Below are positions 5,000 through 64,000 of a stretch of 64,000 nucleotides of DNA, piece after piece. The notes beneath the pieces were generated by a model. It was not told the DNA's origin. It was given only the letters and a program-made list of their open reading frames with translations, and ran no database searches. Source of the stretch: an uncultured Nitrospirota bacterium (GTDB lineage Bacteria; Nitrospirota; Nitrospiria; Nitrospirales; UBA8639); assembly GCA_942491685.1 (NCBI GenBank), contig CALOBY010000004.1, forward strand, positions 425,965-489,964, written 5' to 3'. Made by a program: the position numbers and the translations under genes. The first letter of the stretch is position 1, and each line of letters begins with the position of its first letter.

Positions 5000-5002
5000 G
5001 TA

Positions 5003-8905: not shown

Positions 8906-9020
8906 CGAGTCATGTGCTGAAACAGACAGATCCTGAGGGTTATCGGGTATGCCATGCCTGGCATGAAGCTCCAGGGTATGGTAAATTTCAAGTCCCCCCT
9001 CTGATAAGAAAGAGACTTTT

Positions 9021-18383: not shown

Positions 18384-18439
18384 AATCGCCTTTTCCTGAG
18401 GAAGCTAATAAGTCTGTATTTTGAAAGAAAAGGAATCGT

Positions 18440-19252: not shown

Positions 19253-19274
19253 GAACGTGTAGGACCAGCGAAAT

Positions 19275-20219: not shown

Positions 20220-20256
20220 TTAGTCTTCACCAAAACTACATCAAGGATATTTATTC

Positions 20257-21369
20257 ATGCAGCAGGATTCTCAACCCGTGAATCAACCAAATCCTTTTGA
20301 AAAGGTCGTGGAATTTGTTGATGAACGGGTAGGTCTGAAGACCATCCAAGCGAAAATGCTGAATGAGCCGATCCCCGGGGGGTCACGCTGGGCGTATGCC
20401 TTCGGCTCGGTTCTCCTCTTCATTTTCATCCTGCAGGTGGTTACGGGTATCCTGTTGATGTTTTATTACGTCCCCAGTACGGACCATGCTTATGATAGTA
20501 CGCAATACATCATCCATGAGGTAGATTACGGCTGGTTTCTCCTGAGCTATCACTTCTGGGGATCATCTGCGATGGTAGTGATGGTATTTGCCCATATGTC
20601 GCAAGTCTTCTTATGGGGAGCCTATAAAAAGCCTAGAGAGCTGATATGGCTTGTCGGTTTGGCCCTTTTTGGCATTGTCATGGGATTTGGGTTTACCGGA
20701 TATCTTTTGCCATGGGATCAACGGGCTTACTGGGCCACGGTGGTTGGTGTGGAAATTATGGACAAAACCCCAATTGTTGGGGATTTTATGGCCAGATTCC
20801 TCAAAGGGGGACCTACGCCTGGGCAAATGACACTCAGTCGATTTTTTGTGATTCATGTGATGGTGTTACCGGCGGCGTTGGCTGGATTGGCCGGGCTGCA
20901 TATTTTCCTTTTTAGAAAAGCAGGGCCTGCAGGGCCTTTCAGGGGAACGCCAGAGGAGCTCAAGGCGAAGACGGATTACTTTTTCCCAAGGCAGATATGG
21001 AAAGATATTGTGGCCATGGCAACGGTGTTCCTGATTATCTGTTCATTAGCCTTTATTGAGCCGGTTGTTTTACTCCAACAGGCGACGCCTGATCCTGGGG
21101 ATTATCATCCAGAGCCAGAATGGTATTTTCTTTTTCTATTTCAGCTTCTTCGCTTGAAAATGTTTGGGGGGGAGTTTGGTCAGTTCCTTGGCGCGATAGC
21201 AATACCGGGGGCCTTTATGGCCTTTTTGGCAGCGTTGCCTTTCATTGACACCAATCCAGAGCGAAACCTTTTTAAGCGGCCTGCAGCGCTCATTGGTTGG
21301 ATTTTGATCATGGTGATTATTTTGGTGTTTACCGTATCAGCAATAATCAATCGTGAATTCTTGCACTGA
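20257..21369 (+). CDS. petB: Cytochrome b of a bc complex (b6 plus subunit IV-type fusion)
   Basis: GFTGYLLPWDQRAYW, HFWGSS, VHMSQV-equivalent (AHMSQV), RFFVIH and the PEWY motif. Confidence 0.93.
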   Translation: MQQDSQPVNQPNPFEKVVEFVDERVGLKTIQAKMLNEPIPGGSRWAYAFGSVLLFIFILQVVTGILLMFYYVPSTDHAYDSTQYIIHEVDYGWFLLSYHFWGSSAMVVMVFAHMSQVFLWGAYKKPRELIWLVGLALFGIVMGFGFTGYLLPWDQRAYWATVVGVEIMDKTPIVGDFMARFLKGGPTPGQMTLSRFFVIHVMVLPAALAGLAGLHIFLFRKAGPAGPFRGTPEELKAKTDYFFPRQIWKDIVAMATVFLIICSLAFIEPVVLLQQATPDPGDYHPEPEWYFLFLFQLLRLKMFGGEFGQFLGAIAIPGAFMAFLAALPFIDTNPERNLFKRPAALIGWILIMVIILVFTVSAIINREFLH

Positions 21370-21383
21370 TTTATTGGACGGCT

Positions 21384-22253
21384 ATGTCGAATACTAAATT
21401 GGGACTCCTCGTTTTTTGGCCAACATTTTGGACTGGATTTCCACTGAAGTTGGTTTTTGCCATGCTAATGTTGGCTGCACATATGCACCCATGGTCCGGT
21501 TCAGGGCTTTTTTTGCTGCTACTCATTTCTATTCCAATAGACATTTGGGCATTGGGGCTTTGCGCAAAAACTGTATTTATTGATCGATTGAATGTTGATC
21601 CACAGCCGGGGTTTGCCGCCAATCTCTGGGCGCGCTGGGCTGTTTTTACGGCTATTGCTCTGCCTTTAATCAAGATGGTCGTTTCCGGTGCAACGGAGAT
21701 TTCAAAATCGGTAACCTCCAGTATTGTACATTTTATCAAGGAAAGTATTTGGCCTACGCTGCCTGTCGCCGAACAAATTACCCTTGAATTAGTCATGTGG
21801 GGAAGCGCCGCATCGGTTGTACTCATTGTCTGTATCATGGGTTGGCTGTTTGGTCTTGGCTGGCTTACTCAACCCTTTGTGAGAAATGCGAAATCTTTAG
21901 ATGGTACCGAAGCTGAGCGAGCAAATTTCTGGGATGCTCTTCGGATCCCCGCAGATCAGCCCTTATTGTTAACAGCTTTCACAGGGGCGGGAGTGGTTTT
22001 GGTTTTTGTCTTCTGGTCTTTGTTGCCCGCATCAACTCCTCATCCGCATGAAGAGTATGAATTTATTTCAAAGGGATCAAAAGCAGAGAGGGTGGAAACA
22101 AGGAAGGTTTTAAAAGAAGCGGAGCAAGTGCTTGCAAAAGCCGAACTGGTTGTGAAAAAGCTTGAGGAAGAAAAAAGTGGTGAATCAAAAGAGTCAAGTG
22201 GGGAAAAGGTAAAAGAACCGGTGGCAGAAGAAGCGCCGGAAAAAAAGAAATAG
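21384..22253 (+). CDS. Multi-pass membrane protein of unknown function within the respiratory cluster
   Basis: About five to six hydrophobic segments, a PHPH motif and a charged C-terminal tail; co-oriented with its neighbours. Confidence 0.7.
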   Translation: MSNTKLGLLVFWPTFWTGFPLKLVFAMLMLAAHMHPWSGSGLFLLLLISIPIDIWALGLCAKTVFIDRLNVDPQPGFAANLWARWAVFTAIALPLIKMVVSGATEISKSVTSSIVHFIKESIWPTLPVAEQITLELVMWGSAASVVLIVCIMGWLFGLGWLTQPFVRNAKSLDGTEAERANFWDALRIPADQPLLLTAFTGAGVVLVFVFWSLLPASTPHPHEEYEFISKGSKAERVETRKVLKEAEQVLAKAELVVKKLEEEKSGESKESSGEKVKEPVAEEAPEKKK

Positions 22254-22365
22254 CTAAAATACGGACTGCTAAAAACGTACTAAGCTAGCAAGTGAAATAC
22301 GGCATAGGGTATAAAGGTCTGAAATTGGTTCTTGGGTCTAAAAATGAACGAGTGAAGGGGGCCTA

Positions 22366-24249
22366 GTGATGAGATCGGCCAACCGAATAGAACAATCGAC
22401 CATTAAAAATTTTCTGGGGAAAATGCCAACTATCTTTAAGTGGGTAAGCTTCCTTTCGGTGTTGTTGCTTCCGGTGATCGCGATGGCTGCCGGGGCGGAA
22501 ACGAAAGCAATGTCGGTGGAATATCGGGATGTTCCCGGAATTGGCAGTCGGAATCTTGTTTGGGTTGTCGCGCAACAACATCTTCTCTTGGCGGGATTCG
22601 TCCTGGGGGTTCCGATTTTTGGTTGGGTGTGCGAGTTGGTTGGATGGAAAACAAAAGAAGCCCGTTATGACAAATTAGCCAAAGAGTTTACTAAACTCCT
22701 GACCTCGGCATATGCCACCACCGCGTTGTTTGGAGGAATTCTCCTGTTCTTGTTGATTGGGCTCTATCCCAAATTGATGGCCTATCTCACTGATATGTTT
22801 TTCCCATCTTTTCTCGTCTATTGCCTATTGTTTTTAGCTGAAACCGCTACCCTCTACATGTATTGGTACGGGTGGGATTATATGCAGGGGAATAAGAAGG
22901 TCTTTCACTTATTTTTGGGATTCCTTCTGAACTTATTTGCCATTGGAATTATGATCGTTCCTAATTCTTGGGCCACCTTCCAAGCAAGTCCAGTGGTGGT
23001 AGGGGATGGGGATGCTTGGACTCGAGCCTGGATGGCCATGCAGAACCCCACGTGGTGGCCGGTTAATATTCATCGTCTCATTGCCAATGTGGTGCTCGGT
23101 GGGTTTATCGTCGGGGCGTATGCAGGAATTCGTTACCTATTGGCTGTTTCTCAGGAAGAGCGAGAGCATTACGATTGGATGGGATATGTCGGGAACTTTA
23201 TCGGGGTATTTGGCATGCTCCCTCTCCCATTCGCTGGATATTGGTTGATGCGGGAGGTGTATCAATACAATCAGCAGATGGGGATTACCCTCATGGGTGG
23301 TTTCCTTGCATGGTTGTTTATTCTTCAGGCCATGCTTATCGGCGTACTATTTCTTGGGGCAAATTATTATTTTTGGATGGGAATTACCTATCGTATACCC
23401 GGGTCTGAAAATTCGTACAAGAAGCCGATTATGGCTATGCTCGTCGTCCTCTTATTATGTTTAGGTGTTTGGATGACTCCGCATTCCTTGGTGGCGAGCT
23501 TAGCGGAAGCGCAAAAAATGGGAGGCACACATCATCCTTTACTCGGGGTTTTTGGGGTCATGTCTGCCAAAATGACCGTCTCCAATTTAATGATCCTTGT
23601 CACCTTCATGAGTTTTATTATGTATTGGCGCGCGGGGAAGCAAGAAACGGCTGGTTGGGCTAAAGCCGCTAAGGCCATTATGGGTGCTCTGCTTTTTGTT
23701 GGAGGTGTTGCGGTAATTGTCCTTGGGGTGTGGGGCTATTTTGTTCCGGCAATTATCCGGATCAATTATTTCTCCGTCGCACAGGTATTGATCGTCTTAT
23801 TTATTATGGTGACGTTTACACCTTTGACAGCGTTGTTAATGAAAAGTGCCAAAACGACGACTGAAATGGTGTGGGGAAAAATGCCTATTCGTGCGGGCTA
23901 CAGTCTAGTACTCAATGCGGTAATGGTTATTCTGCTGATGTCTTTAATGGGTTACGCCAGATCTTCTTCACGGGTTCATTGGCATATTTATGGTGTGATG
24001 CGTGACACTTCTGAATATGCATTTTCACCGGCATTAGGGTATGCGGCTGCGTTTATGTCCTTAAATACCTTTGTCTATTGCTTGTTGGTGGCTTTTATTT
24101 TCTGGGTTGCGACATTAGGTGATAAAGCCAAAGCGCAACAGGCCAAAGTGCCCTTGTCTGATGTTCCCGGTGGTGCACCGGCTATGGCTGGTGGATCGCC
24201 AAGTTCAGTGGAAAATATTGGGTCCGGATCTCTGGAAAACCATAGGTGA
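22366..24249 (+). CDS. Cytochrome bd-like oxidase subunit I homologue (copy 2, extra histidines)
   Basis: AQQHLLLAGF, YDKLAKE, NIHRLIAN, WMTPH, GGTHHP and RVHWHIYG; paralogous to 16698-18383. The true start may be about 57 nt downstream (MPTIFKW). Confidence 0.82.
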   Translation: MMRSANRIEQSTIKNFLGKMPTIFKWVSFLSVLLLPVIAMAAGAETKAMSVEYRDVPGIGSRNLVWVVAQQHLLLAGFVLGVPIFGWVCELVGWKTKEARYDKLAKEFTKLLTSAYATTALFGGILLFLLIGLYPKLMAYLTDMFFPSFLVYCLLFLAETATLYMYWYGWDYMQGNKKVFHLFLGFLLNLFAIGIMIVPNSWATFQASPVVVGDGDAWTRAWMAMQNPTWWPVNIHRLIANVVLGGFIVGAYAGIRYLLAVSQEEREHYDWMGYVGNFIGVFGMLPLPFAGYWLMREVYQYNQQMGITLMGGFLAWLFILQAMLIGVLFLGANYYFWMGITYRIPGSENSYKKPIMAMLVVLLLCLGVWMTPHSLVASLAEAQKMGGTHHPLLGVFGVMSAKMTVSNLMILVTFMSFIMYWRAGKQETAGWAKAAKAIMGALLFVGGVAVIVLGVWGYFVPAIIRINYFSVAQVLIVLFIMVTFTPLTALLMKSAKTTTEMVWGKMPIRAGYSLVLNAVMVILLMSLMGYARSSSRVHWHIYGVMRDTSEYAFSPALGYAAAFMSLNTFVYCLLVAFIFWVATLGDKAKAQQAKVPLSDVPGGAPAMAGGSPSSVENIGSGSLENHR

Positions 24250-51052: not shown

Positions 51053-52330
51053 TTAACTGCCCTCAATTCTCACGCCGATGGTTCCGGCGTAGTTGTCGAA
51101 TTGGCTGTGGCCAACCAAGGCCTTAAAGTTCACGAAGGGTTGAATCCCATTAGGCAGGACCAATACGGTGCCCATACCTAAAGTGAAAAAATTTCTATCA
51201 GGTTTATCGTTGTTAAAGCTAAACTTAGTTGGGTTCGCTCGGTTGTCCTCGATAAATTGGACGTCAATAGATCGTTGATCATTCTCAAACTCATGAATAT
51301 AGTCTGCCGTGGCTTGCGGAACCCAGACACCATAGGACGTATTGATTGCCATGGTTCCCTGAAGGCCAATGGTGGTTTGGAGGGATTTGACAGTTTGGTC
51401 GTCAAACTCTAGGCCGATGCCTCCGCCGCCACTTTCTTTATAATCACCAATAGAATTACGGGAATAGTTCACTCCCACCCGTGGACCAACGGTAATATTT
51501 CCGATTATGTGGTCATAGCCTGTCAACGCTTGGATTTGAAATTCATTTCCATCTGAATCGCTACGGGCATTGCCCCCGAATGGAGTGCCGCCAAGTGTCA
51601 CGTATTGGACCTGTCTTTTTACATCGTAGTTATGCCTGGAATACCCTAGACTGACATCAACAAACATGGCTGGTATAGGCATGACGGAACCATAAGCCAG
51701 GAAGCCATAGGAATCGGTGTCGAAATTTCCCCCGCCGTCAAAGTCTCCATCGCGATTTGTATAATTGAAGGCGCCGCCGGCTAAGAACATGTTATTAAAT
51801 CGATAGTCTGCCCCGACCGTTGCACCCAACACCGTTGAATCAAACCCATCCCCAAATGTTGTTCTATCCCTATTCAACGCCTCGAAATTTCCAGAAACAA
51901 AGAGGCCTAAACCGCTCGGCAAATTAATAGTCGCTTGATTCCCAGTCGATTCCCCTTCCAGCCGGTCTAGTCTTCGGTTTTCTACCGTGGCTCCTAATGA
52001 TTGAGCGGATCCCGTTCCCCCGCCAGCAGAACCTCCAGGTCCAGATGGAATATCGTTGCAGAGGGCAGTCAGGTTAGGGCCCAAACCAGGAACGGCACCT
52101 CCACCGGTCAGATTTTGACATTGGAGATCAAGTTGATTAGCTATCGCTTGGTCCAGGGTAGTTGCGGCAAGGGTGGAATTCGGCAAACAAAAAGTGGCAG
52201 CTAACAGGGTGGTTCCTAAGAAACCATATGCCCCGGTAATTTTGATCAAGGGACGGCAAGAGGTTGAGAACCGAGAACCCTTTTCCCTTGAAGAAAAATC
52301 ATCTAGCGGGTTGTCATGCATCGTATCCAT
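51053..52330 (-). CDS. Autotransporter beta-domain outer-membrane protein with very short passenger
   Basis: GGAGG RBS before ATG 52330, long signal peptide, a passenger with two Cys, then a barrel (TVGADYRF, GPRVGVNY, WVPQATADYIHEF, C-terminal GTIGVRI). Confidence 0.82.
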   Translation of the reverse strand: MDTMHDNPLDDFSSREKGSRFSTSCRPLIKITGAYGFLGTTLLAATFCLPNSTLAATTLDQAIANQLDLQCQNLTGGGAVPGLGPNLTALCNDIPSGPGGSAGGGTGSAQSLGATVENRRLDRLEGESTGNQATINLPSGLGLFVSGNFEALNRDRTTFGDGFDSTVLGATVGADYRFNNMFLAGGAFNYTNRDGDFDGGGNFDTDSYGFLAYGSVMPIPAMFVDVSLGYSRHNYDVKRQVQYVTLGGTPFGGNARSDSDGNEFQIQALTGYDHIIGNITVGPRVGVNYSRNSIGDYKESGGGGIGLEFDDQTVKSLQTTIGLQGTMAINTSYGVWVPQATADYIHEFENDQRSIDVQFIEDNRANPTKFSFNNDKPDRNFFTLGMGTVLVLPNGIQPFVNFKALVGHSQFDNYAGTIGVRIEGS

Positions 52331-52514
52331 TTCACACCTCCCCAGAATACGGACCAAATAATAGTAGTAAAATTCCTTACGGTTGAAAAAGACACTGATT
52401 ATAAAGCCTGATAGGCCTGGTTTCAATATAAAAGAGACCACCAGTGTTGATCCGTTAAGTGCTGACTCAGTACACTGTCATGCATAAGTGATTGTAAAGA
52501 TTCACTCAATACCT

Positions 52515-54755
52515 ATGGCTCCCACATTTTCCCCAAAGAATATCTTCGTCGTTCTTTTCCTTGCCATGTTGAATGCTGCCTTACTGTCTTCATGTAGAAC
52601 GAATTCTGGCCAAGATTCTCTCACTGGAGGGGGAAATTCCGATGTAAGGTCTTCCGCAACTGTTGGGGGAGGGGATGATTTTCTGGCTGTGGATTGCCTA
52701 CTGCCAGGCCAAATGCGACGTCTTGGGACGCGTGTGACGTTTTTGACCGCCCGCCGCCCAGCACGAACGACAGCCGAAGACTGCGCCATACGTGGCGGCG
52801 AATACACTCTCCATGATCGGGCTGACTATCAGACTTCACTGAAGTTGTGGCTTGATGCGGCTCAAGAAGGCGATGCGAAAGCTCAATATTACGTAGGTAC
52901 CATTTATGAGAAAGGGCCGAAAGGCATACCGGATTACGCTTTGGCTGCAGTCTGGTATCAAAAAGCTGCCGAACAGGACCATCGACAGGCGGCGATGAAC
53001 TTGGGCCGCCTCTATGAAAAAGGGTTGGGCGTACCCCACAATGCCTCAACAGCCTTTCAATGGTATGGCCGGGCGTCAGGGTTAGGGGAATCAGGTTTAT
53101 CGATGCTGATGAATGTAGAAGCGAGTCAACGCATCCAGCATTTGGAAAAAGCTATGGGAGAGAAGGAAAAAGAGATACTTCGATTGCGAGCACATATTAA
53201 TGAGATAACCCAAGAGCTTAGTCAATTGCGGAATCAACTTCGCCAGCAATCATCAGAGGCCGAAATCGAGCATCAAAAGTTACATACGTTGGAAGAGGAA
53301 TATCAAAAGATTCAGGTTCAGGTACAGGCTGAGCGAGAACAACATGCACGAGATCAAGAGGAACTTCATCAACTCAAAAGTCTTCTGACGAAAAAAACCG
53401 GTTCGGCGGAAAGCATGCGTAATCGAATTCAGGTATTAGAAGTGTCTTTGGCGCAGTCTAACCAGGATGCTAGGCGGGAACAAATTCAAAAGGCCATGCA
53501 AGCGATACAGGTAAAACTCGATCGACAAAAAGTGATTGTGAACGAGCGGAATCAGGAAGTCGAGCGACTGCACCAGCATATTGCCTTATTGGAAAAAGAA
53601 GCGGATGAACGGAACCAGGAATTGAGGCAGACTCCTAGCGTTGATTTAGGATTTGAAGGACCGACGATAGAAATCGTGGATCCCCCGATGCCCCCGACTA
53701 GGGGTATCAATGTGGTCGGGGACGTGCCCATTATTCCAGCTGTGGTTGGCGTCCCACGTCACCTTGCCGGACGGGTCATTGCTCCCGCAGGCTTGCGTAC
53801 TTTCACCATAAACGGGCATGCCGTTCAAGTGGATGATCATGGTATTTTCGCGATGGATTTTCCTCCAATTTCTGAAGCCCATGGGACCCTACCGGTTCAA
53901 ATCATGGCAGTCGATATCCAAAATAAACATGCGGCCAAGAAAATAACCTTGGTGGCTGGTAAAACGGTGGTCGCGGCGCCGGAAATTTCCGACGAAGATA
54001 TGGAAGTTTTTGGGAATTACTATGCGTTGGTCATCGGCAACGATAAATATGAGCATTGGAATCCACTCAGAAATGCAATATCCGATGCTCAGGCAGTGGC
54101 TGAAGTCCTTGGAACCCGTTATGGATTCAAGGTGACCTTTCTGAAAAATGCTACGCGGAGAGATATATTGAAGGGGCTCAACAACTTTAGAAAAACACTT
54201 AAAGAAAATGACAACCTCCTAGTCTACTATGCCGGACATGGGCATTTGGAAAAAGATATCGATCGAGGTTATTGGATTCCTGTGGATGCGGAAATCGATG
54301 ATACCTCTCAATGGATTCTCACTCCCAGTATTACAGATCTTCTGGAGCTGATGTCTGCGAAGCACATACTTGTCGTCGCAGATTCCTGCTTTGCCGGGAA
54401 AATGACCCGGTCGAGTCTGGCGCAACTGCGCCCTGGTCTCTCGGAAGAGAAGCGAATGAAAATGCTCAAGACTGTGGCAAAAAAACGAGTGCGCACGGCG
54501 TTGACTTCTGGAGGGGAACATCCGGTCTTAGATGTTGGAGAAGGAGGACATTCGGTGTTTACAGGAGCCTTCATCACTGTCCTCGGTGAAAATCAAGCCA
54601 TCCTGGAGACCGAACGCCTGTTCCTTGCTATTCGCACCAGAGTGGTGAGTGCTGCGGGAGAATTTAAAATGGAACAAATTCCCACCTATTGGCCTATCCA
54701 ATTTGCTGGCCATGAGAGCCTCGGAGATTTCATCTTCATCCCACAACAAAGCTAG
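52515..54755 (+). CDS. Lipoprotein with Sel1-like repeats, coiled coil and C-terminal caspase-like (peptidase C14) domain
   Basis: Lipobox LSS-C; Sel1 repeats (AQYYVGTIYEKG, AAMNLGRLYEKGLG); YALVIGNDKY; catalytic YYAGHG and VADSCFAG. Confidence 0.88.
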   Translation: MAPTFSPKNIFVVLFLAMLNAALLSSCRTNSGQDSLTGGGNSDVRSSATVGGGDDFLAVDCLLPGQMRRLGTRVTFLTARRPARTTAEDCAIRGGEYTLHDRADYQTSLKLWLDAAQEGDAKAQYYVGTIYEKGPKGIPDYALAAVWYQKAAEQDHRQAAMNLGRLYEKGLGVPHNASTAFQWYGRASGLGESGLSMLMNVEASQRIQHLEKAMGEKEKEILRLRAHINEITQELSQLRNQLRQQSSEAEIEHQKLHTLEEEYQKIQVQVQAEREQHARDQEELHQLKSLLTKKTGSAESMRNRIQVLEVSLAQSNQDARREQIQKAMQAIQVKLDRQKVIVNERNQEVERLHQHIALLEKEADERNQELRQTPSVDLGFEGPTIEIVDPPMPPTRGINVVGDVPIIPAVVGVPRHLAGRVIAPAGLRTFTINGHAVQVDDHGIFAMDFPPISEAHGTLPVQIMAVDIQNKHAAKKITLVAGKTVVAAPEISDEDMEVFGNYYALVIGNDKYEHWNPLRNAISDAQAVAEVLGTRYGFKVTFLKNATRRDILKGLNNFRKTLKENDNLLVYYAGHGHLEKDIDRGYWIPVDAEIDDTSQWILTPSITDLLELMSAKHILVVADSCFAGKMTRSSLAQLRPGLSEEKRMKMLKTVAKKRVRTALTSGGEHPVLDVGEGGHSVFTGAFITVLGENQAILETERLFLAIRTRVVSAAGEFKMEQIPTYWPIQFAGHESLGDFIFIPQQS

Positions 54756-56330: not shown

Positions 56331-57944
56331 TTACCGTTGTGAAGGCAGTCGTCGCGTTGGTGATTTCAATCCAGTGGGTGGTTGAAGTCTTTCTCTTGTC
56401 GCATTTGGCGTCGAAATGGCTGAAGAAGTCGTAATGCCATTCGGGCTCAATTGAATAAACTGATTGCCTGATCGAAGGATCAACCGTTCCTGACCACTAG
56501 TGGCATCGAACAGGATCTCATTGGTCATTCCTGATACTGAGCGATTCTGAAAGAGTGCGTGAAACTGATTGTCTGGTAATGAAGTAGGTGGCAGGTCCTT
56601 TCCGTTCCACATGTTTCCTAAGATCACAGGACGATTGGGGTCGCCATGCTCGAAGGCCACTACCACTTCGTCGTTAATCTCTGGGATCCACATGGCGCCG
56701 GTCCCGTTCCCGGTCGCCAGCTGCGCCACTCGGACCCAGCCCGCGTCCCCTTCCGTCTGGTTGCTGAAGGCCGGGTTTCGCCAGGGGAACCGTACGCGCA
56801 CCCGACCAAATTCATCCACGTGCTTCGACTCTCCTTGTGGCCCAACCACGATTCCAGGCAGGGCGCCGGCAATCTTGGGCCGTGGCGTCCCGGGAGCCGG
56901 GCGAAAAATAATGTTAGCAGGTAGGCAGGTAAATGAATTGTGGTAGCCTTTTGGCGTACTGTGATGTTCCACACCAGTAATCACATATTCCTGATTGAAA
57001 TCCTTGCGTGGGTGTCTGGTCATTGAGAACCGGTAGCCAGCCCGCATGTGCATGTAGGTGGATGTTCCTCCACAAGATTGCCCTTCCGTGACTCGTGCTG
57101 CTAACCGTGTGGTGGCAAACTGCTGTGACTCTTGGGGTGTGTCCACTGCGGCGGGGAACACCCCTTCCACTAAATCACGAAAGAATGGAGATTGAGCCGT
57201 GGCCGTCAAATTGACATTCGGAGTTTTCCAATGGACATCTCCAGCTTGAATCCGGCCGGAATGGAGAGCCAACCCTCGCGAAAAGGACGTGATGGATGGA
57301 CCCTTGGGAGACGCAAACATCAATTGGCCTGGAGATAAAATGGGGAAGGCGGTGTTGGAATCACCTAAGACCACCTTCACATCGGGGCCGGAAGGTTCAA
57401 AATGATAGTGAATCCCTTCGTTCTCTAAAAGCCGGGAAAAGTAGGTGAAATCACTTTCCTGATATTGAATAGAAATTTCTCTAGATGAACCTGAGCCTCC
57501 GAGTCGTATTTCAAAATCCGAAATCCCGGCGTCATTCATCACGATAGTCATAATTTGTACCGCATTCATGTCGGCAAAGGTGCGACTGGTCATGCGATAG
57601 GACAGCCGTTTCAGTGGAGGCACTAAATGTAGGCGATACTGGCCTTGTCGACCTGTTGCACCAGACTGTTCGATGGTCTCGATCATGCCTTCTACCGTCC
57701 GACCTTTGGCCACTGTGAGCTTCAAGACTTGGCCTACAATATTGGCAAAGTTTAAGGCTGGATGTGGAACAGATACTTCAAGATCAAACCTAAACGGTTG
57801 TGAAATATGCTCTGTGCCGGAAAATTGCACAACGCGAGCTTGAGATAGAGCGGCCAAGTCAGAATTTGTGGCGGCCAGCACATTTAAGGGCAGGCCAAGG
57901 ACGAGGGCAGTCAGTCTCAAGATCCAGAATATTTTCGTTTTCAT
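56331..57944 (-). CDS. vgrG: VgrG-like spike hub protein (gp27-like plus gp5 OB-fold) with N-terminal signal peptide and truncated C-terminus
   Basis: GTEHISQPFRFDL, QYQESDFTYFSRLLENEGIHYHF, DEFGRVRVRFPW, WVRVAQ, PEINDEVVVAFEHGDPNRPVILG and NEILFD..SGQERL. N-terminus MKTKIFWILRLTALVLGLPLNVLA|A. Confidence 0.9.
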   Translation of the reverse strand: MKTKIFWILRLTALVLGLPLNVLAATNSDLAALSQARVVQFSGTEHISQPFRFDLEVSVPHPALNFANIVGQVLKLTVAKGRTVEGMIETIEQSGATGRQGQYRLHLVPPLKRLSYRMTSRTFADMNAVQIMTIVMNDAGISDFEIRLGGSGSSREISIQYQESDFTYFSRLLENEGIHYHFEPSGPDVKVVLGDSNTAFPILSPGQLMFASPKGPSITSFSRGLALHSGRIQAGDVHWKTPNVNLTATAQSPFFRDLVEGVFPAAVDTPQESQQFATTRLAARVTEGQSCGGTSTYMHMRAGYRFSMTRHPRKDFNQEYVITGVEHHSTPKGYHNSFTCLPANIIFRPAPGTPRPKIAGALPGIVVGPQGESKHVDEFGRVRVRFPWRNPAFSNQTEGDAGWVRVAQLATGNGTGAMWIPEINDEVVVAFEHGDPNRPVILGNMWNGKDLPPTSLPDNQFHALFQNRSVSGMTNEILFDATSGQERLILRSGNQFIQLSPNGITTSSAISTPNATRERLQPPTGLKSPTRRLPSQR

Positions 57945-58010: not shown

Positions 58011-58973
58011 TTACTTATCCCAGAGGTCACACACGAACCTGGTGCTGTCGATATAAATGCCACGCTTCCCGCGAAAGGCTTTGCCGACTTTTCCGGAAGG
58101 GCAGAAAAAGTTACCTGAGGGGGAGCTACTAAAATTTCCAATTACTTTGCATCTGCCCCCGGTACAACTTACGCTTTCCGAATAAATTGTCGCTTTTTGG
58201 CTTTGATTCCATTGACTACAGAATAAAAGAATTCCATTGACGAACTGGCCGGAAAAACCCTTGACTCCCTGAACGACCTTGCCATTTTCACAACGACCAA
58301 CTTGAGCAATTCCCCCACTACCCCCAACCGGTCCTCTGGTGAATTCATTTCCCAAAGCCCCGGTTTGAGAGTTTACTTGTTGACAAATGATTCCCAGAGC
58401 ATCCAACCACATTCCGCTTTTGTAAATTCCCCCAACCATGACGGAGCCACTGCCACAATCGAGATTATACGAATAGTTACCTCCTCCCCCTCCAAAAAGG
58501 GGGGTGGAGTATTCCGTCGAGGCGGTCCTTTGGGTGGAGGAAAGCGTTTTTAGGCGTTGAATGGTGAAAAGCGAAAGAGTGCCTCTGGAGCGAATACCAC
58601 TATAGGTGCCGATCGCTTCCAACCGCTTTCCATCAGGAATCAACAAGGCAAGGTGGTAGGTGTCAGGTTGGTCTCCCTCAGCCGAAATCGCCAAAGGAGC
58701 GGTGAGCGATTCTTCATGGGTCGCCGACTGCGCTTCCAAGAGCAACGAATCCACCGCCTGTCCTTCGCTCGGGGTGACCCGCAGCCATTTGTCAGCCGCA
58801 CCCACGGCATAGGTACCGGCGTCGAGCACAATGTTGCTGCCTTCGGCATTCAGAAAATGCACCGGTTGATCCAAAGTGATGCTGGTGTCGGCTAGGGCTG
58901 TGGGAATGTCAGCCAGAAACCACGCCAGGAACGCGCTGGCCAGAGACAAGTAAAAGGGAAGTGTCTGTCGCAT
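58011..58973 (-). CDS. Secreted protein: shared N-terminal domain plus Cys-containing beta-prism (jacalin/VMO-I-like) domain
   Basis: Signal peptide, LDQPVHFL...GTYSGIRSRG, then three repeats of G.GG...C..G.V..G...G..(LD/VN/ID)...C. Confidence 0.8.
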   Translation of the reverse strand: MRQTLPFYLSLASAFLAWFLADIPTALADTSITLDQPVHFLNAEGSNIVLDAGTYAVGAADKWLRVTPSEGQAVDSLLLEAQSATHEESLTAPLAISAEGDQPDTYHLALLIPDGKRLEAIGTYSGIRSRGTLSLFTIQRLKTLSSTQRTASTEYSTPLFGGGGGNYSYNLDCGSGSVMVGGIYKSGMWLDALGIICQQVNSQTGALGNEFTRGPVGGSGGIAQVGRCENGKVVQGVKGFSGQFVNGILLFCSQWNQSQKATIYSESVSCTGGRCKVIGNFSSSPSGNFFCPSGKVGKAFRGKRGIYIDSTRFVCDLWDK

Positions 58974-59022
58974 GACATCTCCTTTGTAAAAAGAATGGAT
59001 GAGATTATTTTTGAATTGTTGG

Positions 59023-59946
59023 TTATTTCATGTTCTCAATAATCTTTCTCTGCGCATCCGAGTTTTTCTTCATGATCTGAGACATGGCTTGCTGTGCTTG
59101 AGAAAATTTGGACATGGCCGTTTGAAGTTGGAAATTCAAGTCCTTCGAGGCATTTTCTAAGGTCTGTAATTCCTGTTTCAACCGCTGCGTCAACTGTTGC
59201 CATTGGGTTTTTCGTTGTTGGTTGCGTTCCTGTGCCAACTTTTTTTGTGTGTCTTGTAAGTGTTGACGAATTTTTTGTTTTTTGGTGTTCCCGTCTTGGA
59301 TCTTTGCTCGATAGAACTGTAAATCTTTTTGAGTGGCTAAATATGATTGCCGTAAAACTTCAACCATGAGGGCATTGGCATTGAGCGAATGAGGAAGCTG
59401 ATTCTTCGATTGAGTTGGCTGTTTGCCTTGTCCCACCAGTTTATTCCATTCCTTTTGTAAGGAGGATTTCGGCGCCTTCTTTGTCAGTGATTTAGCGAAT
59501 GATTTCACCTGTTTCCTAAAGGGCGGCTTGAAGGTTTTTCTTAGATTGTGAAGGCTCATCCCACGCGTTTGAATGCCGCTATACGAGCCCATCGCCTCTA
59601 GTCCGTTATGGTCTGGAATCGCCAAAGCCAGATAGACTCCTTCGTCGGGAATCGGAATGGCCATTCCTATTGGCAACTCGACTTCGTCAGGAAACGGGGT
59701 AGGCTGCGCTTGTAGAGAAATAGATGTTTGGCCATCCTGAGCCTGGAGCCGTAACTCGTCTCCCTGTCTTTCTAGTTCGTACGTTCCGGGTGGAACCACG
59801 ACATCATTGCCTTCTGGAGTCAGGAAGTGAACCGCCTGGTCCAGCATGATCGCCATCGAAGATTCTGATGCCAGCGCCGGTAATGTTCCAAGAAGAAATG
59901 TTACGAATAAGAGTCCAAGTAATTTGATCGAGTATTTCTTCGTCAT
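59023..59946 (-). CDS. Secreted protein: shared N-terminal domain plus coiled-coil C-terminus
   Basis: GAGG RBS at ATG 59946, signal peptide, LDQAVHFL...GSYSGIQTRG, Q/K-rich coiled coil ending ...MSQIMKKNSDAQRKIIENMK. Confidence 0.8.
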   Translation of the reverse strand: MTKKYSIKLLGLLFVTFLLGTLPALASESSMAIMLDQAVHFLTPEGNDVVVPPGTYELERQGDELRLQAQDGQTSISLQAQPTPFPDEVELPIGMAIPIPDEGVYLALAIPDHNGLEAMGSYSGIQTRGMSLHNLRKTFKPPFRKQVKSFAKSLTKKAPKSSLQKEWNKLVGQGKQPTQSKNQLPHSLNANALMVEVLRQSYLATQKDLQFYRAKIQDGNTKKQKIRQHLQDTQKKLAQERNQQRKTQWQQLTQRLKQELQTLENASKDLNFQLQTAMSKFSQAQQAMSQIMKKNSDAQRKIIENMK

Positions 59947-59969
59947 GTTCTTGCCTCGCGATTTGCTGG

Positions 59970-61301
59970 TTAATATCCTATGGGGGTTGGTATTTGTCCG
60001 CCTGCGCAGGATCCGCCTATGACAGGACCTACCGGCACGAACGGGGGTGCAAAGGAGGGTACGGGCCCAGAACCCATGACGTTCATCAACTGGCATCCAC
60101 TGAGACAGGTTGCATGTCGTCCACCGATATCCGTGGCGAACCCCTGGACGGCAATCTTGGCTTCTTTGTCGCTCGATGGGACGCCTAATCGAGATAAAAC
60201 CTTTTTAGCTAAAAGGGGTGGCGTCATCGCTTTCGTTCCAGCGGAGGGCATCGACGAAAGAGGAAATGGAACGTTTGGCATGGGAGGAGCCTGTGCTCCA
60301 GGAAAGGCTGTAAATGCCGGATACATGGGAAGGCCAGGGATGATAACGTTCTTCGCCCAAAGGTTCCACGTTTCTTTGAAAGCCTGGTCCCAACCATCAG
60401 CTACGGATTTAGACGCGCCTGCCGCCTTCAACGCTTTTGATATTTTGCCCTGAAACGAGTATCGGCTTTTCAGGACACCGGGTGTTCCGATGGCCGATAC
60501 CGCCATGACCTTACAATAGTTTCTATCGATATAGGCCTGACTGAGCCAGGTTGCTGCCTCCGCTCGGGCTGCAGCAATGGCCGTTTGACTCCACAGAGTC
60601 CATTTCCCGGATCCGCCGGTCACGGTTTGTCTGGCTTTCTGAATTCCACTCTTCACATTTGATACGACCTGGCTGGTTTTTTTCTCAACGGCTTTCTTGA
60701 CTTCAAGCGCGGCTTTTCTGGAATTCTGAAGACCTTGTTTCGCGGATGATGCCGCCCTTTGGGTATGTTGTTGTGCTTGTTTTGTCGCTTTTTGTGCGGA
60801 ACTTTTGGCTTGTGAAGCGGCCTTCTTTGCCGTGGACTTGGCTTTCTTATGGGCTTGTTTAGCCTTTTTCTTCACGTTGTTCACGGCATTGTTAAAAAAT
60901 CCCCTCTGTCTAATGCCACTAAAGGTTCCTGTTGATTCCAAACTTTCACCGTTTGGCAGTAACAAAATGATGTGGTGAAGATCCTGACTATCGTCATCGG
61001 TACCTGAGACTGACAAGGCCAACGGCTCTGGTAGTTCTAGCTCATGTGTGCCTTTGTTGGCCTCAATGAGGACGGCGTCATGACGTTCACCGGACATCAG
61101 GCGAATCCATTCTTCAGCCGGCTCAATGCCATACGTACCGGCCTTGACTACTAGATCACTCCCATCGGGTGCCAAAAAATGTACAGGGATGTCCAGTTTA
61201 ATCGTGGTAAGAGGATCCCGTAATGAGGCTGCTGATTTTCCCGTGGTGCTGAACAAAGCGAACGTTACCAAAATAGTAGAAAGAAATTTGAATTTTTTCA
61301 T
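59970..61301 (-). CDS. Secreted protein: shared N-terminal domain, basic helical linker and Pro-rich unknown C-terminal domain
   Basis: GAGG RBS at ATG 61301, signal peptide, LDIPVHFL...GTFSGIRQRG, K/A/Q linker, C-terminal PGLPMYPAF...GPVPSFAPPFVPVGPVIGG. Confidence 0.8.
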   Translation of the reverse strand: MKKFKFLSTILVTFALFSTTGKSAASLRDPLTTIKLDIPVHFLAPDGSDLVVKAGTYGIEPAEEWIRLMSGERHDAVLIEANKGTHELELPEPLALSVSGTDDDSQDLHHIILLLPNGESLESTGTFSGIRQRGFFNNAVNNVKKKAKQAHKKAKSTAKKAASQAKSSAQKATKQAQQHTQRAASSAKQGLQNSRKAALEVKKAVEKKTSQVVSNVKSGIQKARQTVTGGSGKWTLWSQTAIAAARAEAATWLSQAYIDRNYCKVMAVSAIGTPGVLKSRYSFQGKISKALKAAGASKSVADGWDQAFKETWNLWAKNVIIPGLPMYPAFTAFPGAQAPPMPNVPFPLSSMPSAGTKAMTPPLLAKKVLSRLGVPSSDKEAKIAVQGFATDIGGRHATCLSGCQLMNVMGSGPVPSFAPPFVPVGPVIGGSCAGGQIPTPIGY

Positions 61302-63365
61302 GGTTGTGACCTCTTGGCTCATACGGACATAAGGATAAGGTGTGTTTCAGCGCACCGCAGCTTCTGCGAGCTGCACGACACTTTGGTTGTAACGCTCCAA
61401 GGCTTTCCGAGTATCCTCCGTATGGGTGCTGGCTAATATGACGATTTGTTGCTTAGAGGGTAAATACCGCAAAAGAGCCGACAATGGTCCCGCATGCCGT
61501 TGAATGGCCGTATACGTTCGGTTGTTTTTCAAGGCATCTTTGGCCTCATCGATGACCTTGCCGTACGCATAATGGGCTCCGGCTTTCACGCTGCCGACAA
61601 TGATATTGTTGATAGCCAATTTCCAAATGACGTCGGGTGTGATTTTTGCCAGGCCGGACACAATCCCCCCGGCTTCAGGGACGAGACCAGCCACACTCTG
61701 GACGACCGTGCCCACGGTTTGTTCCCCAAAATCCAACACTTCGACAGCAGAGCGGATGAGGAAACTCCCCCCACCTGGCAGTTCACTATCCAGATACTTT
61801 TTCCCCACGACACGAAGGATTTCCATGCCGATATCGATATAGAGGGATTCCGTCCAAGGAGTATTAGGATCCAGCGCGGTTCTGACGGCATTGAGGGCCT
61901 GCCCCCGCTGAGAGGGGTTATTCAACGTTTTAGTGAGGTGTTCAATTTGACTGGCGGCCGCATAGAGATCGCGTGGGTTCAATAACTGGTCTGCCAGGAC
62001 CGCGTTCTTAATGTCAAGGATATCCCCCAACCCTGGAACCACATCACCGAGCAAGGCTTTTGTATCATCTTGCGTGAATCCTCGACTGATAATAGGGCTC
62101 TTGGAAAAGAAACGATCGTCGGAAAAATACTGTTGGGGATTAATGCCTCTTGACTGAATTTTTGCTTGGGCAATTTCTTGAGGCGTCAGGGAAAGGACAG
62201 CTGCCATTAGATCGCCAAGCTGCTTGCTTAAACTGCCAAACAAAATGGGGGCCACTTGATTGTCAAAGATACGTTTCCCTTGGGTGATGGTGGTCTGCTG
62301 GATCTGACCAGATTTTCTCTGAAAGGCCTGGAGATGTGGACGGACAAACTGCATCAGACATCGCCCCCCGGGGCCCTTTTGTGCGATTTTTTCAATGGAC
62401 CGAAAAGCCATGGCGATGACCTGCGGGCCTTGTGGTGCTGAACGAGACGGGTTCCGAATGAACTGCAGTTGTTCCGACATGATGTCGCTAAAACTCTGCT
62501 CCCATTGCTGCATGATGTCCTGGAAGAGTTGGTTCGCAAATTCTGGAGGATTGCTCGTGAATTGTTGAACCATCTGTGGAATGTTGGCCGAGGGTTTTCC
62601 CGATGACTGGGCCAGGCAGGCAAATAAGGGTTCCAAACTGAGTTTTCTAACGGCTTCTAGCGTTTGGATTTCACTTTGGAGTGTGGCGACCAGGGGATTA
62701 TTTTTGATTTGATTCATCCCTGCCTGGGCACTGCTTTGGACATTTCCTGCCACCTGCTTGGCGGTATTCTCCACTTGACGCTTAGCGTGAAGGGCCGCGT
62801 TTCTGGCTGTTTGAAATCCAGCTTTTGCTGTTGAAACTGCCTGCTGCGTTCCTTTTCGTACTTGTTTCTGTGCGTTTCGTGCAGCTTTTTGTGCTTGAGA
62901 GGCCGCCTTCTGTGTTTCTTGCTGAGCGTGTTTCGTTGCCTTTTGTGCGGTGCTTTGGGCCTGAGAAACAGTTTTCCTGGCTGTAGATCGGGCTTTCTTA
63001 TAGGCTTGATTCGTCTGTTTTTTAACGTTATTGATGGCCTGGTCAAAGAACCCCCGAGGTCGGATCCCACTGTAAGTCCCCGTTGATTCTAAGCTCTTAC
63101 CGTTTGGGAGTAAGAGGATGAGGTGATGGCGGTCTCGGCTATCATCTTGAGTATCTGCCACTGACAAGACGAGTGCATCTGGGAGCTCTAACTCATGTTT
63201 GCCGGCCTTAGTTTCAATGAGGAAGGATTCATGACGAATCCCTGGTACCAACCGAAGCCAATCTTCTGCAGCTTCAACCGTATAGGTTCCTGTTGGGATG
63301 ACCTGAGAACTGCCATCTGCCCCAATAAAATGGATCGGTTTGTCAATAGTGATTGACGTCAGTGG
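60600..63365 (-). repeat. Paralogous duplicated segment (shared domain plus K/A/Q linker) in genes 59970-61301 and 61347-63455
   Basis: The two N-terminal domains are 66/106 identical by hand alignment. The linkers align (FF.NA.NNVKK...QA.KKA.STA.K..SQA.S.AQKATK.AQQ.TQ.AAS), and DNA similarity is visible between ~60780-61070 and ~62930-63230. Confidence 0.85.
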
Positions 63366-63455
63366 ATCGGTGATTGTTGCCAAACATACGCCCGATAACA
63401 TCAAGGCTGAGACCAGAGAACACAAGAATGTATAAATCCACTGAGATCGCTTCAT
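61347..63455 (-). CDS. Secreted protein: shared N-terminal domain, basic helical linker and large helical C-terminal domain
   Basis: AGAGGAG RBS, signal peptide, IDKPIHFI...GTYSGIRPRG, K/A/Q linker, then about 470 aa of mostly helical sequence. Confidence 0.82.
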   Translation of the reverse strand: MKRSQWIYTFLCSLVSALMLSGVCLATITDPLTSITIDKPIHFIGADGSSQVIPTGTYTVEAAEDWLRLVPGIRHESFLIETKAGKHELELPDALVLSVADTQDDSRDRHHLILLLPNGKSLESTGTYSGIRPRGFFDQAINNVKKQTNQAYKKARSTARKTVSQAQSTAQKATKHAQQETQKAASQAQKAARNAQKQVRKGTQQAVSTAKAGFQTARNAALHAKRQVENTAKQVAGNVQSSAQAGMNQIKNNPLVATLQSEIQTLEAVRKLSLEPLFACLAQSSGKPSANIPQMVQQFTSNPPEFANQLFQDIMQQWEQSFSDIMSEQLQFIRNPSRSAPQGPQVIAMAFRSIEKIAQKGPGGRCLMQFVRPHLQAFQRKSGQIQQTTITQGKRIFDNQVAPILFGSLSKQLGDLMAAVLSLTPQEIAQAKIQSRGINPQQYFSDDRFFSKSPIISRGFTQDDTKALLGDVVPGLGDILDIKNAVLADQLLNPRDLYAAASQIEHLTKTLNNPSQRGQALNAVRTALDPNTPWTESLYIDIGMEILRVVGKKYLDSELPGGGSFLIRSAVEVLDFGEQTVGTVVQSVAGLVPEAGGIVSGLAKITPDVIWKLAINNIIVGSVKAGAHYAYGKVIDEAKDALKNNRTYTAIQRHAGPLSALLRYLPSKQQIVILASTHTEDTRKALERYNQSVVQLAEAAVR

Positions 63456-63500: not shown

Positions 63501-64000
63501 TTAAGGGACAAATACACTTGTGCTTCCAGAAACCACCTTTCCTCCAGACACTGAACTGGTCACATGCGCCACCGATTTGGTGCCATCATTGAGTTTAATT
63601 TGCGGAGCTTTGAGCTTTAGAGTTCCTGCCCCTTCTGCGGCGACATCTTTTCCTCCTTTAAAGGAAAGGTCCTTTCCACTTTCTAACTCAAAGTCATCTC
63701 CTGCGGTAATCACCAAATCTTGGGCGGATGTAATGGTGAGGTCTTTAGCAGTATTGATTGTCAGAGTTGGAGCCTGAATGGTGGTCGAATTTGCAGAAAC
63801 TTGGACAACGGATCTGAGGAGATTTACCTGGGACTGTAGAATCTGAACCTGTTTTTTGAGGGGCATGACTTGTTTGTTCTGGGCTTGTAGGGCACCGACC
63901 TGTTGTTTTAATGATGAAATTTGTTGGTAAAGGTATTCTGGGGTAATTTGCAATTTCTGGACGTTGCTCGGTGGTTGTTGCATTGGCGGTTTTTGTGGCT
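63501..64000 (-). CDS. Coiled-coil plus gp5/gpV-like beta-helix spike protein (5' end probably outside window)
   Basis: The frame stays open to the window edge (..PQKPP-MQQPP). Heptad coiled coil, ~8-residue repeats (TINTAKDL/TITSAQDL/VITAGDDF/ELESGKDL/SFKGGKDV), then IKLNDG..VAHV...SGS..VF. Confidence 0.75.
   Translation of the reverse strand, partial: PQKPPMQQPPSNVQKLQITPEYLYQQISSLKQQVGALQAQNKQVMPLKKQVQILQSQVNLLRSVVQVSANSTTIQAPTLTINTAKDLTITSAQDLVITAGDDFELESGKDLSFKGGKDVAAEGAGTLKLKAPQIKLNDGTKSVAHVTSSVSGGKVVSGSTSVFVP

Follow-up and report, generated by a model that had tools for sequence, protein, structure and literature searches.

The locus described here raises the question of why four tandem genes, whose products end in unrelated C-terminal parts, should all place the same domain of about 100 residues behind a signal peptide and close that domain with an Arg-Gly motif. 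The genes, called P1 to P4, lie on the minus strand of a 64,000-nucleotide stretch of contig CALOBY010000004.1 (positions 425,965 to 489,964, assembly GCA_942491685.1) from an uncultured Nitrospirota bacterium, and this stretch at its full length is referred to as the window. The shared domain, the N-domain, was noticed in an annotation made from the sequence alone (the first-pass annotation). The analysis reported here establishes that the N-domain defines a family, that it holds a constant position followed by a motif and by diverse C-termini, that the genes of the window lie in an operon whose other members carry export signals, and that the motif also occurs outside the domain. As for its role, we give about even chances to the reading that the N-domain is a leader, situated between the signal peptide and an Arg-specific site, on the cargo of an exported assembly of VgrG, needle and tube proteins.

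The N-domain and its family

The four genes and the parts of their products are as follows, with all coordinates counted from the first letter of the window.

58011-58973, minus strand: P1, 320 residues; signal peptide, N-domain (58581-58892), motif SGIRSRG (58581-58601), C-terminus (58011-58580)

59023-59946, minus strand: P2, 307 residues, start MTKK; signal peptide, N-domain (59560-59868), motif SGIQTRG (59560-59580), K/Q-rich coiled-coil-like C-terminus

59970-61301, minus strand: P3, 443 residues, start MKKF; signal peptide, N-domain (60900-61220), motif SGIRQRG (60900-60920), cationic amphipathic linker with an 11-residue repeat (60606-60899), C-terminus (59970-60605)

61347-63455, minus strand: P4, 702 residues; signal peptide, N-domain (63051-63371), motif SGIRPRG (63051-63071), cationic amphipathic linker (62700-63050), then two all-helical domains with a disordered spacer between them

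An independent gene caller, run on the source contig, returned identical ends for all four genes, with P2 likewise called at 307 residues. The genes are tightly packed, the gaps from P4 through P3, P2 and P1 to the VgrG gene being 45, 23, 49 and 66 nucleotides (nt), and each product opens with what reads as a typical Sec signal peptide, in which a basic n-region leads into a hydrophobic core and the end is AxA-like. A hidden Markov model (HMM) of the four copies gave, against the six-frame translation of the window, exactly four matches (E 3e-47 to 4e-52), far beyond chance; these are the four copies listed in the first-pass annotation, whose start coordinates are those of the last codon of the motif, i.e., the 3' ends on the minus strand. 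The N-domains of P3 and P4 are 61% identical over 108 residues, in agreement with the 66 of 106 counted earlier by hand. In BLASTP comparisons of the four proteins, alignments end at the motif for all pairs but P3-P4, whose similarity runs about 105-127 residues past it through a basic linker, and the C-terminal parts of the other pairs have no match at E≤0.1; the abrupt break after RG, the unrelated cargo and the linker shared by two copies are thus borne out.

The observation is confirmed and extends far beyond these four copies. An index-free profile search over 1.84 billion cluster representatives (clusters at 50% identity) returned 935 representatives at E≤1e-3, of which 641 reach E≤1e-10, with proteins from 130 to 910 residues long. 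Among the best 142 family proteins, on which the counts of position, signal and tandem copies are based, the N-domain starts at a median of residue 28 and within residues 1-60 in 140, and it is preceded by a signal-peptide-like hydrophobic core in 130 of the 135 with enough sequence ahead of it; nine carry a lipobox-like motif and 22 have a tandem double N-domain. The layout of a conserved N-terminus and a variable C-terminus, which had been read from four proteins, therefore holds on a large scale: the C-termini of the 105 longer proteins fall into 41 BLAST groups, 29 of which are singletons, and 41 is a lower bound on the number of unrelated C-termini. Hence the HMM search proposed in the first-pass annotation led neither to a mundane Pfam family, nor to stand-alone domains only, nor to a single fusion.

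A word-index search with the four-copy profile had given only short proteins, which at first suggested stand-alone homologues. For the most part these are calls that frameshifts or truncation have shortened in assemblies with many errors, such as P0004, which has the sequence of P3 and then diverges, and P0006, P0013, P0015 and P0023, which are similarly truncated by frameshifts and falsely appear to stand alone; long fusions dominate the index-free search.

Regarding taxonomy, a scan of GTDB with one genome per species found 21 loci, all 21 in metagenome-assembled genomes (MAGs) of Nitrospirota, a distribution biased to close relatives because the scan used patterns from the four-copy profile. 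Loci are designated here by L and a number, L024 being the source contig. Two of them, L003 and L017, lie at 546-590 kb of OZ244988.1, one complete Nitrospirales chromosome that carries at least ten N-domain copies within 43 kb, including two tandem-double-domain proteins encoded directly after a gene for a C14 peptidase.

As to the identity of the domain, no family of Pfam or NCBIfam reaches its curated cut-off, no PHROG family and no PDB sequence relative was found, and 2.9 million viral contigs contain no relative. The only match is to BACON_2 (PF19190) and covers residues 55-103 of P1 (19.6 bits with a gathering threshold of 25, E 8.6e-4), with weak local similarity also in one N-domain homologue. 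We rejected this assignment: the score is below threshold, half of the domain is covered, and P2-P4 do not match. In addition, BACON_2 is not among the Pfam families matched by 98 family members at E≤1e-4, and an immunoglobulin-like match to the N-domain model was not found with Foldseek. That model, computed with AlphaFold2 from 27 diverse copies, predicts an all-beta fold of ten strands with a mean predicted local distance difference test (pLDDT) score of 91.8 and a predicted template modelling (pTM) score of 0.81; the motif, at residues 101-108, is predicted to form an unstructured tail past the last strand. Foldseek gave no match to this confident model among its targets, which did not include the AlphaFold DB. 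The earlier description of the domain as unrecognised thus stands, and it is fair to regard it as a previously undescribed all-beta leader domain of about 105 residues, within a fold search that left the AlphaFold DB outside. Neither this domain nor a VgrG or Hcp with a signal peptide is described in the literature that was consulted, the coverage of which is incomplete, so an earlier description is possible.

The C-termini that follow are recognised by Pfam in a minority of cases, the classes being Lipase_3 (three proteins), Lcl_C, Peptidase_S74, PAN, Tachylectin, RCC1, Amidase_2 and Peptidase_M23, together with WSC, crystallin, beta-helix, CARDB and others. In the window, the Cys-rich C-terminus of P1 is predicted to be a jacalin-like lectin: a profile of eight homologues matches the jacalin-related lectins 1zgr (E 4e-8) and 4mq0 (E 9e-8) over about 45 residues, and the single sequence matches a PDB lectin at E 0.0016. 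The C-terminus of P2 has weak matches of the coiled-coil type only in Pfam and NCBIfam, and relatives of the C-terminal domains of P3 and P4 were not found (by a PDB sequence search in the case of P3). The model of the P4 C-terminus is of low confidence (pLDDT 63), and the Foldseek entries AhlB, ClyA and XaxB, at E≥0.4, are not significant, so that an alpha-pore-forming toxin is a lead at most.

The linkers of P3 and P4 are rich in Ala, Lys and Gln, have net charges of +21 and +18 over about 100 residues, and show an 11-residue repeat with a hydrophobic-moment peak at 98 degrees, a periodicity that we read as the probable signature of 11/3 amphipathic lipid-binding helices like those of apolipoproteins and synuclein. 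Family-wide, 23% of the 40 residues that come directly after the motif are Lys or Arg, versus 11% overall. Both linkers match PHROG "tape measure" proteins (E about 1e-6), and these matches are best explained by the Ala/Lys/Gln-rich helical composition rather than by common descent. In a paralogue at L014 8377-9198, the N-domain is fused to a coiled coil and a C-terminus of beta-helix type, similar to the needle proteins described below.

The operon around the N-domain genes

What surrounds P1 to P4 gives a first indication of where their products may act. The genes in question are the following, the last two lying upstream of P4 and just past position 64,000 of the window on the source contig, where Pfam domains were taken from orthologues.

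56331-57944, minus strand: VgrG-like spike, 537 residues; Sec signal peptide (57870-57944), without a C-terminal beta-helix

63501-64000 (open reading frame (ORF) 63501-63983), minus strand: 3' part of a needle gene, with the frame open to the window edge and the 5' end beyond it

L024, region 7449-9955: upstream gene, 213 residues; signal peptide, coiled coil and T4 gp5 C-terminal beta-helix

L024, region 7449-9955: tube gene, 390 residues; twin-arginine (Tat) signal SRRDFLTKTALLAGG (SRRDFL) and two Phage_T4_gp19 tail-tube domains

The VgrG gene starts at an ATG behind the ribosome-binding site AGGAAGGA and encodes a 25-residue signal peptide, MKTKIFWILRLTALVLGLPLNVLAA; the gene caller agrees on this start and on 537 residues. 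The protein scores 360 bits with TIGR03361 (cut-off 186) and matches Phage_GPD (1e-60) and Phage_base_V (2e-19), and by these matches it has the gp27-like part and the gp5 OB-fold predicted for a VgrG/TssI protein. The complete needle gene (L024 9371-9955) encodes 194 residues, with the signal peptide MKKISLPLTIVIVLSQISLAIAA, a coiled coil and a DUF2345-like beta-helix (a weak DUF2345 match). The order on the source contig is therefore a gp5C needle with a signal peptide, a tube protein with a Tat signal and two gp19 domains, a second needle with a signal peptide, P4, P3, P2, P1, and a VgrG with a signal peptide (SP-VgrG).

This order of a needle gene, one to five N-domain genes and a VgrG gene is found again in L003, L004 and L014, and in part in L002, L015, L019 and L021, even where VgrG is only 65-76% identical to that of the window, and orthologues of P4 come first after the needle gene in L003 and L014 too. 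The suggestion that the N-domain is a spike-loading tag fits this context, with the array flanked, in several genomes of Nitrospirota, by needle genes on one side and VgrG genes on the other.

The export signals are not peculiar to the window. All full-length VgrG homologues at 41% identity or more (about 85 clusters, P0183-P0268) have a signal peptide directly before the VgrG N-terminus, and their named members belong to Nitrospirales or Nitrospirota, whereas those VgrGs of other phyla that reach at most 35% identity have none. Homologues at 59% or more are short (about 537 residues, no beta-helix), and those at 45-55% retain a DUF2345 C-terminus; it seems that the needle is supplied in trans to a VgrG without one of its own. 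The more distant SP-VgrGs of L027 and L029 are encoded together with an Hcp that carries a signal peptide (SP-Hcp, T6SS_HCP family; L027 8233-8784, L029 8400-8930 and 12080-12637), with Tat-gp19 proteins, with a CxxCxxCC protein and with many secreted proteins.

Genes for the sheath (TssBC), the baseplate (TssEFGK) and the membrane complex (TssJLM) of a type VI secretion system (T6SS) are absent from the 64-kb window and its 10-kb upstream extension, and no capsid, lysis or baseplate-wedge genes occur within 10 kb of the operon. No prophage was found in the remainder of the window, which holds ordinary housekeeping genes with chromosomal flanks; two paralogues of a cytochrome bd-like oxidase subunit I and a cytochrome b gene (16698-24249) fit a Nitrospirota chromosome.

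Other neighbours are noted here as observations. A small autotransporter gene with a passenger of about 180 residues (51053-52441, minus strand) lies just downstream of the operon, a position kept on L024 and L025. A cytoplasmic CxxCxxCC (PF03692) gene adjoins the SP-VgrG gene at L014 14756-15469, L021 1790-2495, L027 8863-9588 and L029 8943-9668, often flanked by a gene for a small membrane protein; it is present neither in the window nor in L003. At one locus only, L027, a gene for a CsgG-like outer-membrane lipoprotein (782-1393) lies between a C14 gene and the cargo array, and its product is a possible outer-membrane channel.

Given a VgrG gene, one could suppose P1 to P4 to be classical polymorphic toxins or T6SS effectors, with a canonical contractile T6SS, encoded at another place in the genome, as their means of delivery. 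The genes do adjoin vgrG, as those of T6SS cargo effectors do, their relatives have polymorphic C-termini with lipase, amidase and M23 domains, and at least one Nitrospira, Nitrospira marina, has a canonical T6SS (PMC8115632, supplementary data). That T6SS is nevertheless a canonical cluster with a VgrG of 719 residues and does not account for the present locus. Cargo loading in the cytoplasm, moreover, is at odds with the Sec or Tat signals on P1-P4, VgrG, needles and tube, and with the SP-Hcp of L027 and L029, and the gaps of 23-66 nt at P1-P4 contain no immunity genes, just spurious overlapping ORFs. With these signals and without core genes nearby, the N-domain proteins do not look like a canonical T6SS effector family, and we consider the supposition very improbable. 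There is a likeness to MIX, FIX, RIX and PAAR/DUF4150 effectors, in which a conserved N-terminal module also heads polymorphic effectors encoded beside vgrG, with an overlapping set of lipases, amidases and pore-formers. Those effectors lack a Sec signal and load onto the cytoplasmic spike of a contractile machine; here, in contrast, export signals are found on the cargo as well as on spike, needle and tube, and homology was not detected.

The same gene order can be read in terms of phage tails, with the N-domain proteins as fibres or receptor-binding proteins of a phage-tail-derived particle, the N-domain as an attachment adaptor, and C-termini that bind or depolymerise and are not toxins. 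Tandem genes with a common N-terminus of about 100 residues and varied C-termini, close to hub genes, are also seen for the tailspikes and fibres of P22, Sf6, HK620 and multi-tailspike phages, and in the present case they stand beside baseplate-hub, needle and tube genes. Lectins, Lcl_C, beta-helix modules and the Peptidase_S74 fibre chaperones in which some family members end would suit fibres, as would the L014 paralogue described above and the absence of immunity genes. However, all components bear Sec or Tat signals, and such signals cannot be reconciled with the assembly of a phage or tailocin in the cytoplasm; there are no sheath, wedge, capsid or lysis genes within 10 kb, the flanks are chromosomal, neither PHROG nor the viral contigs contain a relative of the N-domain, whose predicted fold differs from those of tailspikes and is unmatched, and the lipase, amidase and M23 cargo resembles effectors. 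We regard fibres of such a particle as an unlikely explanation.

The Arg-Gly motif and its candidate protease

The motif was called invariant in the first-pass annotation, which is true in the window and nearly so family-wide. Over 178 copies it reads G(-8, 177 copies)-[TS]-Y-S-G-[IV](-3)-[RQ]-x-R(0)-[G/A/S](+1)-hydrophobic, with Arg at position 0 in 173 copies and Lys in three more, and with a small residue at +1 in 167 (G in 126, A in 32, S in nine).

The motif is found apart from the domain as well. The secreted proteins of L027 and L029 lack an N-domain and yet show it, in the same register, 15-50 residues past the signal peptide, e.g., EVGSRGMP, EVESRGTP, GVESRGVP, DVKSRGLF (followed by a run of Lys) and EVTERAVP. 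The pattern [DE][VI]x[STE]R[GA] is present in 11 of the 25 signal-peptide-like ORFs of these two loci and in none of 59 control ORFs (Fisher p about 2e-7), a statistic that is optimistic because the pattern was written after the sequences had been seen. The proteins concerned are encoded at L027 1856-8158 and 13427-20598 and at L029 4772-8315 and 14201-21767; they include a trypsin-like protease, nearly all are without a Pfam family, and the motif is followed by a hydrophobic residue and Pro.

Furthermore, the motif occurs within the cargo. In a comparison that is fairer than the one just given, the C-termini of the 142 representatives, not counting the motif that closes the domain itself, contain [IV].SRG 25 times, versus 1.6 +/- 1.4 in shuffled sequences (maximum 7 in 200), an enrichment of about 16-fold in which several of the counts come from related proteins. 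One pair of such sites is found in P4:

62142-62159, minus strand: IQSRGI, at residue 433 of P4

62076-62093, minus strand: IISRGF, at residue 455 of P4 (the region of the pair being 62076-62159)

Both sites are kept in homologues at 32-66% identity, while the spacer between them varies in length, and the model places the pair in a loop of pLDDT below 50 between two helical domains. In L024, 5 kb upstream of the operon, a secreted protein of 302 residues (4235-5143) has LVRPRGIE just ahead of an acidic C-terminal tail, which looks like the motif set beside a disposable segment.

From these occurrences, [IV]xxR[GA] appears to be a functional element in its own right, and a more general one than the N-domain. 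An Arg that hardly varies, a small residue after it, exposed sites where domains meet, and pairs of sites on either side of a variable spacer form the pattern of a processing site, and the most probable function of the motif is that of a maturation site at which an endoprotease cuts after the Arg. The first-pass proposal that RG is a processing site has thus gained substantial indirect support from the domain-less motifs, the enrichment within cargo and the internal pair of P4.

These occurrences also bear on the idea that the family consists of ordinary surface or matrix proteins, anchored to the envelope (outer membrane, lipopolysaccharide or S-layer) by the N-domain and syntenic with spike genes by coincidence. 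Signal peptides, the lipoboxes of nine of the 142 proteins, cationic amphipathic linkers that could bind anionic surfaces and many lectin or adhesin-like cargoes would all be at home in such proteins. Coincidence, on the other hand, sits badly with a gene order kept while VgrG has diverged to 65-76% identity, and with cargo marked by the same motif at loci with SP-VgrG and SP-Hcp, and an anchor leaves the motif pairs around internal spacers unexplained, so that we judge this idea quite improbable.

The enzyme that would cut the motif is presumably an exported Arg/Lys-specific peptidase. One candidate is encoded next to the operon:

52515-54755, plus strand: C14 lipoprotein with Sel1 repeats, a coiled coil and a caspase-like Peptidase_C14 domain (Pfam 1e-27); lipobox LLSSC, read from the sequence

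The C14 gene adjoins the VgrG gene on the opposite strand, a position conserved on L024, L025 and L003. In the window, L003, L007/L008/L012, L017, L023, L026 and L027, genes for exported C14 peptidases are found at 0.3-3 kb from an N-domain or SP-VgrG gene. In L017 and L007/L008/L012 they point in the same direction as that gene from 0.3-0.5 kb upstream, in L023 and L026 the distance is 2-3 kb, in L027 the cargo array is adjacent, and in L003 the position is the orthologous one. These peptidases have lipoprotein or Sec signals. Bacterial and plant C14 enzymes (ortho- and metacaspases) cut after Arg or Lys, and the C14 lipoproteins of the neighbourhood are suggested as the leading candidate processing peptidases. 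The pro-domains of Arg-specific clan CD enzymes (gingipain, clostripain, metacaspase) offer a parallel, with a near-invariant Arg at the presumed P1, a small P1' residue and an exposed boundary site, to which the exported C14 genes add a further likeness; the difference is that the putative pro-region is here common to dozens of unrelated cargoes and not part of one enzyme.

That parallel suggests a simpler role, namely that the N-domain is a pro-domain only, an intramolecular chaperone or inhibitor with no part in the spike, which would hold exported enzymes, lectins and membrane-active proteins inert up to its removal at the Arg-Gly site, and that its link to the operon is through the motif or shared regulation. 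A pro-domain would suit the exposed tail in which the model places the motif, the many N-domain genes scattered away from spike genes, the C14 genes that adjoin even where no spike gene is nearby (L017, L023, L026) and the loci with the motif and no domain. It would have to serve more than 40 unrelated folds, though, among them plain coiled coils and lectins; the tandem double domains (22 of 142) would be odd for an inhibitor, and the conserved placement between needle and VgrG genes also speaks against it. A pro-domain alone is, in our estimate, rather unlikely.

A proposed mechanism, known systems and biological meaning

In the mechanism that we propose for the exported assembly, the Sec or Tat signals of spike, needle and tube (the last being Hcp-like in related loci) would require assembly outside the cytoplasm. 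The N-domain would dock the cargo, be it lectins, membrane-binding helical proteins, lipases, cell-wall hydrolases or fibres, onto the spike or tube, or else hold it inert, and cleavage at the Arg-Gly site by an exported Arg/Lys-specific peptidase, for which the C14 lipoprotein is the leading candidate, would free it. Of these steps, we infer the cleavage, the identity of the protease, the docking and the role of the exported spike.

Several points weigh against this reading, besides the canonical T6SS of N. marina and the two statistical reservations attached to the motif counts. A needle or VgrG gene lies within 10 kb at just about 9-10 of 23 loci, and many N-domain genes are away from spike genes, so docking may not be the general role of the domain. 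In related loci the motif is used without the domain, which makes the domain dispensable for whatever the motif does. C14 genes may simply be common in these genomes, their adjacency having been counted without an unbiased background, and trypsin-like genes are neighbours too, in L002 and L029. Finally, the restriction to Nitrospirota holds as sampled: it rests on the biased scan, and the 935 clusters carry no taxonomy.

The first-pass annotation had seen in the layout the hallmark of polymorphic toxin/effector systems. Such systems are defined by a conserved N-terminal trafficking region and C-terminal domains that vary abruptly among paralogues, with toxin domains as the C-termini, and with each toxin gene directly followed by the gene for its cognate immunity protein (Zhang et al. 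2012, PMC3482391). P1-P4 and their family have this layout, and some C-termini of the family are Lipase_3, Amidase_2 or Peptidase_M23 domains. However, the gaps leave no room for immunity genes, so the system is not a classical one. The cargoes of the window, namely a lectin-like domain, a coiled coil and two unrecognised domains, are not recognised toxins. In sum, that annotation held up as to a new domain, polymorphic C-termini, linkage to spike genes and a probable processing site, and failed as to a classical polymorphic toxin system. The literature search on polymorphic toxins in Nitrospirota, or on VgrG and Hcp with signal peptides, found nothing relevant.

Among Sec-dependent systems, the closest in layout are the MafB-type (DUF1020) toxins of Neisseria, and short junction motifs are known in CdiA (VENN) and Rhs proteins (DPxGL). 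The features in common with MafB, CdiA and Rhs are a signal peptide, a conserved domain at the N-terminus, a short junction motif, abruptly unrelated C-termini and tandem paralogues. Unlike MafB, to which there is no relation in sequence or fold, the present family has no immunity genes, is linked to VgrG, needle and tube genes, and is confined to Nitrospirota as sampled. Its junction motif, in contrast to those of MafB, CdiA and Rhs, is also found without the domain and within cargo, which points to proteolysis and not to a recombination junction alone.

A wider proposal, which we put forward tentatively and hold for less likely than not, is that Nitrospirota have a so far unrecognised system of protein delivery or surface assembly in which Sec/Tat-exported VgrG, needle and tube proteins assemble in the periplasm or at the surface, without a cytoplasmic contractile sheath, and in which cargo marked by [IV]xxR[GA], with or without a docking domain, is matured by caspase-like lipoproteins.

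The N-domain in itself is an N-terminal leader on modular secreted proteins and brings to the databases of structures and domains a fold family that is new to them; what could be categorically new is the exported spike/tube operon around it. VgrG, Hcp and tail-tube proteins assemble, by the textbook rule, in the cytoplasm. The conserved Sec/Tat signals on their homologues in these loci contradict this rule and, if real, would mean a new use of phage-tail parts. In addition, the short Arg-Gly motif is a testable handle for the prediction of cargo and the search for the protease. Nitrospirota include the most widespread nitrite oxidisers as well as the complete ammonia oxidisers, and their interactions with neighbours in biofilms, soils and treatment plants are poorly known. 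A lineage-specific family with hundreds of clusters, in which one leader fronts lectins, lipases, cell-wall hydrolases and membrane-binding modules, would be a major and so far invisible part of their secretome.

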